Source of the DNA: an uncultured SAR86 cluster bacterium
GTDB taxonomy: Bacteria > Pseudomonadota > Gammaproteobacteria > Magnimaribacterales > AG-339-G14
NCBI GenBank assembly: GCA_902526045.1
Contig: CABZJI010000001.1
Location: 26,482 to 90,481, forward strand
Direction: 5' to 3'
Length of the DNA: 64,000 nucleotides
The notes under the pieces are model-generated. The model was not told where the DNA came from. It did no database searches and saw only the letters and a program-made list of their open reading frames with translations. How positions within the stretch are numbered: the first letter of the stretch is position 1; each line of letters starts with the position of its first letter. The translations under genes and the position numbers were made by a program. This document shows, piece after piece, positions 34,278-38,070 of the stretch.

Positions 34278-34528
34278 AATATTTTCTAGTGACAACCCTT
34301 TCTTTAATTTTTATATGTTGTGCTAATTCAGAAAAATCAATGCAAGCATCTGAAAATGAAAACAATGATTCACAAAATGGTTTGATCTGTAAATTTGAAG
34401 AGGTGACTGGCAGTCATGTGAAAAAGAGAGTGTGCTACACACAACGACAAATGGACAGGCAAAGAGAAATTGCGCAAGAGGCTCTAAGAAGAAGTTCTGG
34501 AGGAGTTGCTTCTAATCCAAATCCTTAG
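34274..34528 (+). CDS. Small hypothetical lipoprotein (C-x5-TGS-x-VKKRVC)
   Basis: FICC lipobox-like; ATGA overlap with previous gene. Confidence 0.75.
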   Translation: MKYFLVTTLSLIFICCANSEKSMQASENENNDSQNGLICKFEEVTGSHVKKRVCYTQRQMDRQREIAQEALRRSSGGVASNPNP

Positions 34529-35544
34529 GGAATTGAGATCTGATCCTGACCCTCTAAACTTTTTGCTGTATCAACTAAAGTCTCTTCAACTGGTCTAGGT
34601 TGCCATTTCAATATTGTTTTTACCTTTTCATTTGAGAGAAATTGAGGATCACCAAGCATCCTAACACTCTCTCGAGCAGTTGCGCTAAAAAGAGCAGCAA
34701 ACCTTATAAGAAAATTAGGTAATCTTAATTTTGGTGCCTTATTAAAACCTGCCTTTATTAAGACTTGAGAAATTTCATAAAGCCAGAAGCTTGAAGTACA
34801 AAGAATAAATCGCTCATTATTTGATCCTTGATTAGATATTGCGTCAACATGAGCTTGTGCAACATCTCTTACATCAACAATACCAAGATGAATATTTGGA
34901 GTTCCAGGTAATTTTCCAGAAGTTAACATCTGAATCAAAACGTTTGTTCCACCTAAATCAGGAGAAAGAGCAGGTCCTAAAACCATGTACGGGCAAAAGA
35001 CAGTTAATGGAAATTTTTCGTCTTCTCTTAAGTCATCAATGAATTGCCAAGCAGACTTCTCCGCCATTGTTTTGCTTTTTGCATATGGAGTAATTTTCTT
35101 TGAATCAACATCTGACCAGTCTTTTTCATCATAATTTTTTTTATCTGAATCGTCATAAAAAATTGAAGCAACTGATGAAGTTAAAATTACTTTTTTTATC
35201 TTGTTAGCTTTTGCAGTTTTAAGCGCACGAAGAGTTCCATCAACAGCAGGCCTAATAAGAACCTCTTCATCCACAGAATCACTAGCTGATATAGGGGAAG
35301 CAACGTGCATTACAAAATCACATTCTCTTCCGGCATCTTCCCAGCCCTCGTCCTTCAATAAATCTAATTCAATAATTTCTAAATTTTCTACTGAAGTGTT
35401 TGATTCTTTCATGGCAGTAATAACCTCTTCTTTTCTGACGTTATCTCGAAGAGTACCTCTGACTGCGTAACCTTGATCAAGAAGTTTTTTGCAACAATGC
35501 AATCCAATGAATCCCGTTACACCTGTTAATAATACTTTTTCCAT
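34525..35544 (-). CDS. Extended SDR, NAD-dependent epimerase/aldehyde reductase-like
   Basis: VLLTGVTGFIG, VMHVASP, TSSVAS, YAKSKTMAE. Confidence 0.88.
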   Translation of the reverse strand: MEKVLLTGVTGFIGLHCCKKLLDQGYAVRGTLRDNVRKEEVITAMKESNTSVENLEIIELDLLKDEGWEDAGRECDFVMHVASPISASDSVDEEVLIRPAVDGTLRALKTAKANKIKKVILTSSVASIFYDDSDKKNYDEKDWSDVDSKKITPYAKSKTMAEKSAWQFIDDLREDEKFPLTVFCPYMVLGPALSPDLGGTNVLIQMLTSGKLPGTPNIHLGIVDVRDVAQAHVDAISNQGSNNERFILCTSSFWLYEISQVLIKAGFNKAPKLRLPNFLIRFAALFSATARESVRMLGDPQFLSNEKVKTILKWQPRPVEETLVDTAKSLEGQDQISIP

Positions 35545-35553
35545 AATTTTCTT

Positions 35554-36741
35554 TTATTCTTGATCAGACTCTAGTCGACTGAGCCACCTTTTAATAATCT
35601 CATCGGTATGCTCGCCTAATTTTGGTGCACGGACAAAGCCTTCATCATGGTTAGATATTTTTACAGGGTTTCCTGGAACTTTCACTATTTCACCACTGTC
35701 TTGCATCAAATCTATAATCATATTTCTTTTCAAGAGATCTTCGTCTTGAAAGGTTTCCGAAAAGTTTTTGACTGGTCCACAAGGTACCCTATGTTTTTGC
35801 AATAAATCTATCCAATATTCTGTTGTATTTGTAGAAAATTTCTCTTGTAAAGCTGCATCAATAGTTTCTCTGTTTTCTAACCTGCCCTTTCTGTTTTTAT
35901 TCTGCTGGGTATCTAGATGTTTTAATCCCATTGCCTCAATCAAGCTGGGCCAAAAGTTTTCTGCTACTACAGCTACTTGAATAAAGTTATCTTGGGTTTT
36001 ATACAAGTTAAATGGAGCATGATTCATGTGTTGGTTCCCAATTGGAACTGGATTTTCTCCAGATAAGAAATGCATAGTTACCATGTAAGTTAGAAGGCTA
36101 ACTTGAGTATCCAACATGGAAATATCTACGTGCTCTCCGTAACCATAGATTTCTCGTGAGCGAATAGCACTTAAGATTCCGATAATAGCGTAAAGACCAG
36201 CACCAAGATCCGCAATAGGGATTCCTGATTTAATTGGATTATTTTTGTCCATTCCAGTAATCGACATGGCGCCCGAGTATCCTTGAACTATGTTGTCGTA
36301 AGCAGGGCGATTTATTTCTGTATCACCAAAGCCACTAATAGAGCAGGTAATTATTTTGGGATTTACCTTCGCTAAGCTTTCGTGATTGATTCCTAACCTT
36401 TTAGTTACTCCTTGACTAAAATTATCAACAACCACATCGGCAACTTCGACCAGTTTTAAAAAAAGTTTCTTCCCCTCATCGCTTTTAAGATCTAACTCAA
36501 TGCTCTTCTTATTTCTTGCAAGAGTTAGGTGATAAGCACCGATACCATCGTGCGAATACTTTGGATCATCTTTAAGAAGGTTTCTTGTTATATCTCCTGT
36601 TTTAGGTTGCTCAATTTTTACAACCTCAGCTCCCAAATCAGCGAGCACCATGGTTGCGTAAGGTCCCGCTAGCATATGAGTTAAATCTAAGACTTTTATG
36701 CCTTTTAGAGATTGCTTCAATTTAGTAATTTGTTTTGTCAT
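35554..36741 (-). CDS. Family III CoA-transferase (CaiB/BaiF)
   Basis: LDLTHMLAGPYATMVLADLGAEVVKIE, RNKKSIELDLK, PAYD (catalytic Asp). Confidence 0.93.
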   Translation of the reverse strand: MTKQITKLKQSLKGIKVLDLTHMLAGPYATMVLADLGAEVVKIEQPKTGDITRNLLKDDPKYSHDGIGAYHLTLARNKKSIELDLKSDEGKKLFLKLVEVADVVVDNFSQGVTKRLGINHESLAKVNPKIITCSISGFGDTEINRPAYDNIVQGYSGAMSITGMDKNNPIKSGIPIADLGAGLYAIIGILSAIRSREIYGYGEHVDISMLDTQVSLLTYMVTMHFLSGENPVPIGNQHMNHAPFNLYKTQDNFIQVAVVAENFWPSLIEAMGLKHLDTQQNKNRKGRLENRETIDAALQEKFSTNTTEYWIDLLQKHRVPCGPVKNFSETFQDEDLLKRNMIIDLMQDSGEIVKVPGNPVKISNHDEGFVRAPKLGEHTDEIIKRWLSRLESDQE

Positions 36742-37240
36742 CTACAGCATTACCCGCAGTAGGGATCAATGCCGAGCGTTTGTATGAAGCTACAACCACA
36801 CCGTTTTGATTGGTGCCAGTAGTCTCAACAGTAACTATGCCGCAGTTTTCTCTAGATTCTGACAACCTTTTCTCTAAGACCTTTGATTCTGCATACAAAG
36901 TGTCACCCACAAAAAGAGGATGAGGTAAAACAATATCAGTCCACCCAAGATTGGCAATGGCTTTTTGACTCACATCGCTTACACTCATGCCAACCATGAC
37001 AGCCACAGTAAAAGTGCTATTTACAAGTGTTTTTCCAAATTCCGTTGCTTTTCCGTACTCTTCATCGAAGTGCAACGGATGAGTGTTCATAGTTAGCAAG
37101 GTAAACCAAGTATTATCTGATTGTGTGATGGTGCGACCTGGTCGATGCTCATAAATATGACCAATTTCGAAATCTTCGAAATACCTGCCGAAAGTTTCTC
37201 TATATCTGTTATTACCTAAATCTTTAATGCCTTTAACCAT
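36722..37240 (-). CDS. MaoC-family (R)-hydratase, RipB/Ich-like
   Basis: GRYFEDF, HRPGRTIT..DN, NTHPLHFD hot-dog hydratase motif. Confidence 0.88.
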   Translation of the reverse strand: MVKGIKDLGNNRYRETFGRYFEDFEIGHIYEHRPGRTITQSDNTWFTLLTMNTHPLHFDEEYGKATEFGKTLVNSTFTVAVMVGMSVSDVSQKAIANLGWTDIVLPHPLFVGDTLYAESKVLEKRLSESRENCGIVTVETTGTNQNGVVVASYKRSALIPTAGNAVDDKTNY

Positions 37241-38070
37241 TAGTTATCATCTTCTCCTAACTCTAGTCTAAGTCTCATTGCTTCTGCAATTGGTTCATCA
37301 ACCATTTTACCATCGACTTTGATAACTCCTGATCCACCAATCTTTTCGTATTCTTTTAAGACCTTCATAGCTTCTTCTTTTTCCTCTTTGGTTGGCTCAA
37401 AAGCTTTATTTATGATGTCTACTTGTGAAGGATGAATACAAGCTTTCCCAGTAAAACCCATATTTTTAACAGCTATAGCTTCCTTTTCACATCCCTCAGG
37501 GTCATCAAGAAAGAAAAATGGAGCATCGATCGTAAATAAGTCGTACATTGCCGCTGCAATCGCTACTTTTGATCTGGCATAAAGTAAGGGTTCCCATGCT
37601 AATTTAGCTTTTAGGCCCGCTGAAAAATCTGCTGCACCAAAAAATAATCCTCTCACACCTTTAAAAGATGCTATTTCATCTACAGTGGCAACTGCTCTAG
37701 GCGTTTCGATTAGTGGAATGAGATCGTCTTCAAAGGCAATTTTGGTAGCAAGAGTTGCCAATGAGTCAAAACTTTGAATCTTGGGTAAAATGATAGCTTC
37801 TATTTGCTCTTGATAATCAGAAATTAGATCTATGTCTTCTCTTCCTAAGTCTGTAACAGGATCATTGACTCTGACAAAAACCGGTTTAGAAAATTTGTGA
37901 CCGTCTTTAAAATTACTTATTAAATCCTCACGAGCTTCTTTTTTTAAGTCATCCGGACAACCGTCTTCTAAATCAATGATAATGGCATTGACGTCGGTTT
38001 TCTGAACCTCATCGAGGTTGTGCATTTTGTGACCTGGCACAAACAGGTTGGACTTGAATCTGTATAACAT
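37240..38070 (-). CDS. CitE-family acyl-CoA lyase (RipC/Ccl-like)
   Basis: LFVPG, IDLEDG, FVRVN, PLIETP, FFGAADFSA, GFTGKACIHPSQ, GKMVDEP. Confidence 0.9.
   Translation of the reverse strand: MLYRFKSNLFVPGHKMHNLDEVQKTDVNAIIIDLEDGCPDDLKKEAREDLISNFKDGHKFSKPVFVRVNDPVTDLGREDIDLISDYQEQIEAIILPKIQSFDSLATLATKIAFEDDLIPLIETPRAVATVDEIASFKGVRGLFFGAADFSAGLKAKLAWEPLLYARSKVAIAAAMYDLFTIDAPFFFLDDPEGCEKEAIAVKNMGFTGKACIHPSQVDIINKAFEPTKEEKEEAMKVLKEYEKIGGSGVIKVDGKMVDEPIAEAMRLRLELGEDDN

Follow-up and report, generated by a model that had tools for sequence, protein, structure and literature searches.

Three coenzyme A enzymes appended to a cytochrome c4-dsbA operon in an uncultured SAR86 bacterium: a putative route for branched dicarboxylates

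Six packed genes and their three coenzyme A enzymes

The stretch considered here, hereafter termed the window, comprises 64,000 nucleotides (nt) of contig CABZJI010000001.1 from an uncultured SAR86 cluster bacterium and carries three adjoining genes for a CitE-like lyase, a MaoC hydratase and a family III coenzyme A (CoA) transferase. They lie among six tightly packed open reading frames on the minus strand, running from 39318 to 34525 (Table 1), and the family of every one of these, including the three enzyme families named in an earlier reading of this DNA (the original prediction), was confirmed with both Pfam and NCBIfam. The same prediction had described overlapping genes appended to a cytochrome c4-dsbA operon and followed by a short-chain dehydrogenase/reductase (SDR), which the junctions bear out: as read directly from the sequence, the motif TAATG occurs at both the dsbA/lyase and the lyase/hydratase junctions, the hydratase and transferase genes share a 20-nt overlap, and the SDR start lies 9 nt past the transferase stop. 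No terminator-like site was found on the minus strand from dsbA to the end of the SDR gene. The base composition of the operon is native, with GC content and GC at third codon positions (GC3) matching those of the window, which itself sits in a 1.2-Mb assembly (G000) that is 93 % complete. Close relatives of its proteins come from marine metagenomes and gammaproteobacterial metagenome-assembled genomes.

Table 1. Genes of the transcription unit, in the order of transcription (window positions; aa, amino acids)
Gene product	Position	Strand	Families and remarks
Dihaem cytochrome c (c4-type), 213 aa	38677..39318	-	first gene of the unit; two Cytochrom_C domains
DsbA thiol:disulfide oxidoreductase, 208 aa	38070..38696	-	NF008198, PF01323; stop overlaps lyase start (TAATG)
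CitE-like beta-hydroxyacyl-CoA lyase, 276 aa	37240..38070	-	PF03328, PF15617; RipC-like, own clade
MaoC / mesaconyl-CoA-hydratase-family (R)-hydratase, 172 aa	36722..37240	-	PF19315, PF01575; single-hot-dog, RipB-like
Family III (SUGCT-like) dicarboxylate CoA-transferase, 395 aa	35554..36741	-	PF02515
Extended SDR (epimerase / 3-beta-HSD type), 339 aa	34525..35544	-	PF01370, PF01073

Judging from its fold family and its catalytic residues, the lyase can be placed among the CitE-like (HpcH-HpaI) acyl-CoA lyases. Both the window's own family and a second family of the same order (f1 and f2, see the next section) keep the catalytic Arg (in VRVN), Glu (IETP), Asp (GAAD) and C-terminal Asp (MVDEP), to which roles are assigned as for the mycobacterial enzyme Rv2498c (Arg, two Mg ligands, C-terminal Asp; PMC6689899). 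Its top NCBIfam model is RipC_Ccl (NF038242) and its top solved structure is RipC of Yersinia pestis (3qll; 138 bits, E=5e-39), followed by a malyl-/beta-methylmalyl-CoA lyase (5ugr, 104 bits), CLYBL (96 bits), the Pseudomonas aeruginosa-type enzyme (8khl, 95 bits) and Rv2498c (77 bits). An identity as beta subunit of the citrate lyase CitDEF was rejected, as the protein scores 123 bits on TIGR01588 (cut-off 443), has neither citD nor citF next to it and stands apart from the Enterococcus CitE in the tree.

The hydratase has the mesaconyl-CoA hydratase family PF19315 as its top Pfam match (87 bits; PF01575, 74 bits) and conserves the N-x4-H active-site motif (NTHPLH), by which it belongs to the mesaconyl-CoA hydratase/MaoC (R)-hydratases. 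RipB_Ich (NF038241) is its top NCBIfam model, whereas its top solved homologues are beta-methylmalyl-CoA dehydratases of the Mch type. By family and structure matches, the named hydratases nearest to it (RipB/Ich and the Mch-type mesaconyl-CoA/beta-methylmalyl-CoA enzymes) use dicarboxylyl-CoAs, and in IMG it already bears the label 'itaconyl-CoA hydratase'. The protein is 54 % identical to a PGAP-labelled ripB of Paraburkholderia and 62-70 % identical to unlabelled homologues from other Gammaproteobacteria, Tistrella, Variovorax and haloarchaea. Within the order, its identity amounts to 72-87 % as compared to 58-71 % for the neighbouring PolA, which implies strong constraint. In other taxa, the genomic contexts of this hydratase clade vary and the gene is sometimes solitary; among 17 such loci, a CitE-like lyase was found next to it in 10, an acyl-CoA dehydrogenase in seven and a family III transferase in five.

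The third enzyme falls into PF02515 with 381 bits, and its catalytic Asp, which lies in IPIADLG, is matched in the alignment by that of SUGCT and of 10uh, features that assign it to the family III CoA-transferases (Frc/CaiB/SUGCT). Its top NCBIfam models are those for succinate-glutarate (293 bits, cut-off 750) and succinyl-CoA:mesaconate (291 bits, cut-off 700) transferases, so that neither equivalog level is reached, and the matching structures are SUGCT (227 bits) and YfdE (221 bits). The transferases that stand beside the hydratase or the lyase in other taxa are about 32 % identical to it. Five family III CoA-transferase paralogs are encoded in the 1.2-Mb assembly (C1:62086, C1:104341, C2:115454, C5:6769 and C5:19782), and relatives hold a similar number, which is remarkably many for a genome of this size. 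One of the paralogs is part of a co-directional cluster (C5:3994-15676) that also contains genes for an Rv3169-family protein, an acyl-CoA carboxyltransferase, an amidase, a glyoxalase/epimerase-like protein, an SDR and a copper amine oxidase. A second pair of lyase- and hydratase-sized genes on contig C5 turned out to be unrelated.

Several of these matches would also suit the chemistry of C1 esters and glyoxylate known from the methylaspartate cycle and the 3-hydroxypropionate bi-cycle, in which mesaconate would be turned via mesaconyl-C1-CoA and beta-methylmalyl-CoA into propionyl-CoA and glyoxylate; run in reverse, the sequence would allow a co-assimilation of propionyl-CoA and glyoxylate independent of vitamin B12, and a further variant would be the cleavage or repair of malyl-CoA. 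Consistent with this are the Mch-type relatives of the hydratase, the second-best structure of the lyase and the score of the transferase on the succinyl-CoA:mesaconate model, which is haloarchaeal and nearly tied with the top match, as well as the presence of isocitrate lyase in the lineage and the lack of a B12-dependent methylmalonyl-CoA mutase (MM_CoA_mutase) in the five genomes searched. However, the hydratase scores 226 bits on RipB_Ich as opposed to 88 bits on the haloarchaeal methylfumaryl-CoA hydratase model, the malyl-CoA lyase model NF041626 gives the lyase just 65 bits (cut-off 500; the tree contained no bacterial Mcl anchor), and the mesaconyl-CoA isomerase model yields 69 bits. 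Moreover, there is no gap to fill, given malate synthase G in the genus and a PrpB-like protein in relatives. We therefore consider a glyoxylate-type scheme quite improbable.

Two narrower proposals were dropped on similar grounds. A malate synthase G gene was detected in 5/5 genomes of the same genus and not in G000, which points to an assembly gap and argues against a lyase that replaces a missing malate synthase. Likewise, protection of a B12-dependent mutase from itaconyl-CoA presupposes an enzyme that was absent from the five genomes searched. The PrpB-like protein, a member of the isocitrate lyase family of about 295 amino acids, is encoded in four relatives (G016, G017, G028 and G031) and not in G000, probably again due to an assembly gap.

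Inheritance of the trio and its changing neighbours

Four families of one order were compared, namely the window's own (f1, 24 genomes), a second one (f2, six genomes) and two more (f3 and f4, together 10 genomes). The lyase is present in 22 of the 24 f1 genomes and in all six of f2, the hydratase in 20 and six, and the transferase ortholog in 22 and five, respectively, while orthologs of each were found in 0/10 of the f3 and f4 genomes. Since the genomes are kin, this shared phyletic pattern counts as roughly one event of gain or loss. The lyases of the order are monophyletic (99/95), as are its hydratases (97/94), and both groups split into f1 and f2, a pattern indicative of vertical descent. 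In all 10 loci of f1 and f2 relatives that were examined, the synteny of cytochrome c4, dsbA, lyase and hydratase is retained, save for the hydratase that is missing in G021. The linkage to the cytochrome c4 and dsbA genes is thus real and conserved; the best reading is that operons have been fused in a streamlined genome, with no mechanistic link.

The SDR, which the original prediction had noted after the three genes, has to be set apart from the module. It occupies this slot only in the window's genus; other genera lack it at this locus and encode homologues (36-48 % identity) elsewhere in their genomes, as do the pathway-less families f3 and f4. A pathway step catalysed by the SDR was rejected for this reason, and the gene, co-transcribed here, is probably not part of the module.

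In view of such mosaicism, the three CoA enzymes could be mere neighbours in a compacted genome, each serving a different CoA-ester process. The company of the cytochrome, dsbA and SDR genes in the operon would fit this, as would the unlinked transferase of f2 (see below), the often solitary hydratase clade of other bacteria and the presence of five family III transferases in the genome. It is difficult to reconcile, however, with a phyletic pattern that is the same for all three genes, with a lyase-hydratase pair that is syntenic in all but one of the 10 relatives' loci, with a lyase and a transferase that stay joined where the hydratase is lost, and with the recurrence of the same families together in unrelated taxa. 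The absence of any common pathway appears very improbable to us.

Two features of the relatives' loci are new here, the loss of the hydratase in two relatives and the adjoining of the transferase ortholog and an HMG-CoA (3-hydroxy-3-methylglutaryl-CoA) lyase in one. In the first case, no hydratase was found anywhere in G021 and G024, two of the three genomes of one genus (g4), whose third member G018 retains it; lyase and transferase genes abut in both (L015:5486-7512 and C5:871-2852, respectively), with gaps of 2-5 nt. In f2, on the other hand, the transferase ortholog (53-54 % identical, next paralog 32 %) has no linkage to the lyase-hydratase pair and is located close to the isocitrate lyase region. 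The second case is G025 (L063:8317-10429), in which the gene for a canonical HMG-CoA lyase (340 bits, cut-off 246) begins 8 nt past the transferase ortholog, given as 46 % identical (next 34 %); in G034 (L062:4968-10102) and G037, such a lyase is encoded about 3 kb from the ortholog. Taken together, the retention of lyase and transferase upon hydratase loss and the pairing with HMG-CoA lyase make a 3-hydroxy-3-methyl-dicarboxylyl-CoA the likely core intermediate, and they leave six-carbon (C6) substrates, that is, 3-hydroxy-3-methylglutarate (HMG) and methylglutaconate, a serious rival to itaconate. The role of the hydratase, this suggests, is to widen the range to unsaturated acids.

A C6 module of this kind could salvage 3-hydroxy-3-methylglutarate or 3-methylglutaconate, or it could end the breakdown of leucine or isoprenoids via (R)-HMG-CoA as in Mycobacterium tuberculosis. 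The transferase would form HMG-CoA or methylglutaconyl-CoA, the MaoC enzyme would hydrate the latter, and the CitE-like lyase would release acetoacetate and acetyl-CoA. Apart from the gene pairings just described, it can be cited in favour of such a module that human succinate-hydroxymethylglutarate CoA-transferase is among the close solved relatives of the transferase, that Rv2498c accepts (S)-citramalyl-CoA as well as (R)-HMG-CoA for cleavage (PMC6689899), and that f1, in which no canonical HMG-CoA lyase was found, possesses clusters of MCC-like carboxylase and crotonase genes (in G000, MCC/GCC-like acyl-CoA carboxylases at C2:51230-54780 and C13:1716-3766). The carboxylase, however, does not track the module, as it also occurs in f3 and f4, which have neither type of lyase. 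Furthermore, three f2 genomes hold a canonical HMG-CoA lyase together with the CitE-MaoC pair, and the window's lyase is closer to RipC than to Rv2498c (138 versus 77 bits). Enzymes of the HMGL family can also be citramalyl-CoA lyases, as exemplified by the R-citramalyl-CoA lyase of Chloroflexus, and the pairing in G025 is for this reason not decisive. We thus hold a dedicated C6 module to be possible, if on the unlikely side. The more specific idea that the CitE-like lyase stands in for the missing HMG-CoA lyase in leucine catabolism was discarded, given the MCC-like carboxylase of the lyase-less families f3 and f4.

Other genes change around these enzymes from genus to genus. In two f1 genera (g2 and g3) and one f2 genus (g10), the transferase pairs with a gene for a 357-amino-acid, Rv2258c-like protein with a winged helix-turn-helix and an S-adenosylmethionine-dependent methyltransferase (L013:4180-5256, L016:9210-10283, L062:6303-7376), whose place is taken by the SDR in the window's genus. 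The f2 hydratase is followed by genes for an acyl-CoA ligase of the AMP-forming type and a nitroreductase-family protein (L021:3036-6732, L022:8761-11048, L018:9980-13648), with an RPE65-type carotenoid-cleavage oxygenase in between in two f2 genera and an intervening gene on the opposite strand in g10.

A putative five-carbon route

Among the alternatives, we favour a route that would convert branched five-carbon (C5) dicarboxylates (itaconate, mesaconate, citramalate) into pyruvate and acetyl-CoA, to which we assign a probability of roughly 0.5 on the basis of sequence comparisons. The SUGCT-like transferase would move CoA, presumably from succinyl-CoA, onto the free acid. The RipB/Mch-family hydratase would then add water to itaconyl-CoA or mesaconyl-C4-CoA to give a 3-hydroxy-3-methyl-dicarboxylyl-CoA, in this case (S)-citramalyl-CoA, which the RipC-like, Mg-dependent lyase would cleave to acetyl-CoA and pyruvate. 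For citramalate and other hydroxy acids, CoA transfer alone could open the way into the route, which would render the hydratase dispensable in their case. This C5 route is supported by the RipC_Ccl and RipB_Ich top models, by RipC of Y. pestis as the top structure, by the Mch-family Pfam match, by the conserved catalytic residues of all three proteins and by the itaconyl-CoA activities given for SUGCT, Rv3272 and Rv2499c (see the next section), as well as by the co-occurrence of the trio in f1 and f2 and the recurrence of its families together in other taxa. Additionally, the genome encodes isocitrate lyase, an enzyme that according to the literature is a target inhibited by itaconate, and dicarboxylate transporters of the DctP, DctA and DASS types, which likewise speak for such a route.

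Several findings weigh against it. Neither RipC_Ccl nor RipB_Ich is matched at the equivalog level (203 versus 375 bits for the lyase, 226 versus 340 bits for the hydratase), and because the RipB cut-off is not exceeded in a single one of the 400 gammaproteobacterial genomes sampled, about 15 of which have a hydratase of comparable score, the RipB label holds at the family level only. In the PKxE motif, every f1 lyase carries Gln instead of Glu (PKIQS in the window; lyase residues 96-100, positions 37771-37785), a Glu that is retained in the f2 lyases, RipC, CLYBL, PDB 8khl, CitE and most comparators; others that vary here are the Ralstonia lyase (Asn) and a Methylobacterium lyase (Gly). Moreover, the lyases of f1 and f2 are just 34-40 % identical to each other. 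The HMG-CoA lyase next to the transferase ortholog of G025 belongs on this side as well. Finally, no link of SAR86 or this lineage to itaconate was found in the literature, nor was a marine source of itaconate or citramalate beyond marine-derived fungi.

The trees add to these reservations. Their anchors are proxies tied to PDB entries rather than the characterised sequences of Yersinia and Pseudomonas: a Paraburkholderia plasmid locus (L056) with the canonical RipC-ripB-RipA layout, whose lyase scores 216 bits to 3qll, represents RipC and RipB, and a transferase-lyase locus of Ralstonia (L081), with a lyase reaching 200 bits against 8khl, represents the P. aeruginosa Ccl. The lyase clade of the order joins neither Ccl anchor nor true CitE, and the window's lyase is about 30 % identical to both Ccl proxies. 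Similarly, the Paraburkholderia ripB falls outside the hydratase clade of the order, by a weakly supported split, and the transferase adjoining the Pseudomonas-type Ccl proxy is again only about 32 % identical to that of the window. Orthology of the lyase to PA0883 (PDB 8khl) was rejected in view of its 95 bits, as compared to 200 bits for the Ralstonia proxy, and its separate clade.

Measured against these results, the original prediction of a RipABC operon does not stand, as a family I transferase of the RipA type is lacking and both Rip scores remain below their cut-offs. Of the accompanying reading as Ict, Ich and Ccl, the choice of models survives (RipC_Ccl and RipB_Ich are indeed the top ones) and the equivalog assignment does not; nor does phylogeny, as far as proxies tell, unite the lyase and hydratase with RipC and RipB or the lyase with the P. 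aeruginosa Ccl. The use of C5 dicarboxylates, which had been proposed as well, is still favoured, yet the SUGCT-like transferase and the HMG-CoA lyase pairing in G025 keep the substrate range from being narrowed to C5.

A broader scenario, which strikes us as rather unlikely, is that the trio serves as a central pathway for a branched diacid that abounds in the sea and has so far gone unrecognised (for example citramalate, HMG or methylglutaconate derived from the isoprenoid or leucine metabolism of phytoplankton), or as a B12-independent route combining propionyl-CoA with glyoxylate, rather than as an itaconate detoxifier. If the substrate were identified, one compound class would be added to the few that are known to be eaten or detoxified by these abundant, mostly uncultured and genome-reduced ocean heterotrophs, and it would show which branched diacids circulate in seawater. 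The value of the trio, another mosaic of known enzyme kinds, is ecological rather than mechanistic.

Comparison with known systems

Itaconate degradation occurs in two variants, the enzymes of which are non-homologous or only distantly homologous (PMC12290011). The itaconyl-CoA hydratases (Ich) form two subgroups, one with the Y. pestis enzyme and Rv2499c and the other with the P. aeruginosa enzyme and the double-hot-dog protein Rv3389c; Rv2499c of M. tuberculosis was assayed as itaconyl-CoA hydratase and placed with the Y. pestis type by its authors, and Rv3272, a transferase of family III, shows Ict activity (PMC11789021). In mammals, SUGCT has been cited as a source of itaconyl-CoA (PMC12460153).

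With ripCBA of Y. pestis (Ccl-Ich-Ict; also present in Salmonella and in the Paraburkholderia locus), the window shares the order of lyase and then hydratase, and in both the MaoC hydratase is of the single-hot-dog kind and the lyase is CitE-like. In contrast, ripCBA includes RipA, a transferase of the family I acetyl-CoA hydrolase/transferase type, whereas the only transferase in the window's operon belongs to family III. The Paraburkholderia RipCB proxy, which lies outside the clades of the order, is close in its hydratase (54 % identity) and distant in its lyase (30 %). The itaconate-methylsuccinate clusters of P. aeruginosa (PA0878-PA0883) and Cupriavidus resemble the window in a different respect, namely in a family III transferase of the succinyl-CoA type that adjoins the CitE-like lyase, as it does in the Ralstonia proxy; in P. 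aeruginosa, this transferase is presumably PA0882. Their hydratase, however, belongs to the other Ich subgroup with the double-hot-dog Rv3389c, unlike the single MaoC domain of 172 amino acids in the window, and the P. aeruginosa cluster encodes a methylsuccinyl-CoA dehydrogenase as well as an isomerase of the MmgE/PrpD type, neither of which is found in the window's operon (the whole genome was not searched for them). Transferase and lyase of the P. aeruginosa-type proxy are just about 32 % identical to those of the window.

The mammalian set of SUGCT, hydratase and CLYBL combines an itaconyl-CoA-making family III transferase with a CitE-like citramalyl-CoA lyase and thus parallels the families found here, while that of M. 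tuberculosis (Rv3272/Rv2503c, Rv2499c and Rv2498c) offers a hydratase of the RipB group and a lyase working on both C5 and C6 substrates. The genes of both sets are dispersed, whereas the window's trio lies in one operon, and the similarity of the enzymes is distant, as seen from the bit scores to SUGCT (227), CLYBL (96) and Rv2498c (77). By the defining features of the RipABC and PA0878-0883 systems, the trio is a member of neither, and it would work like them. It is a mosaic of known enzyme kinds, for which the itaconate label already exists in public pipelines.

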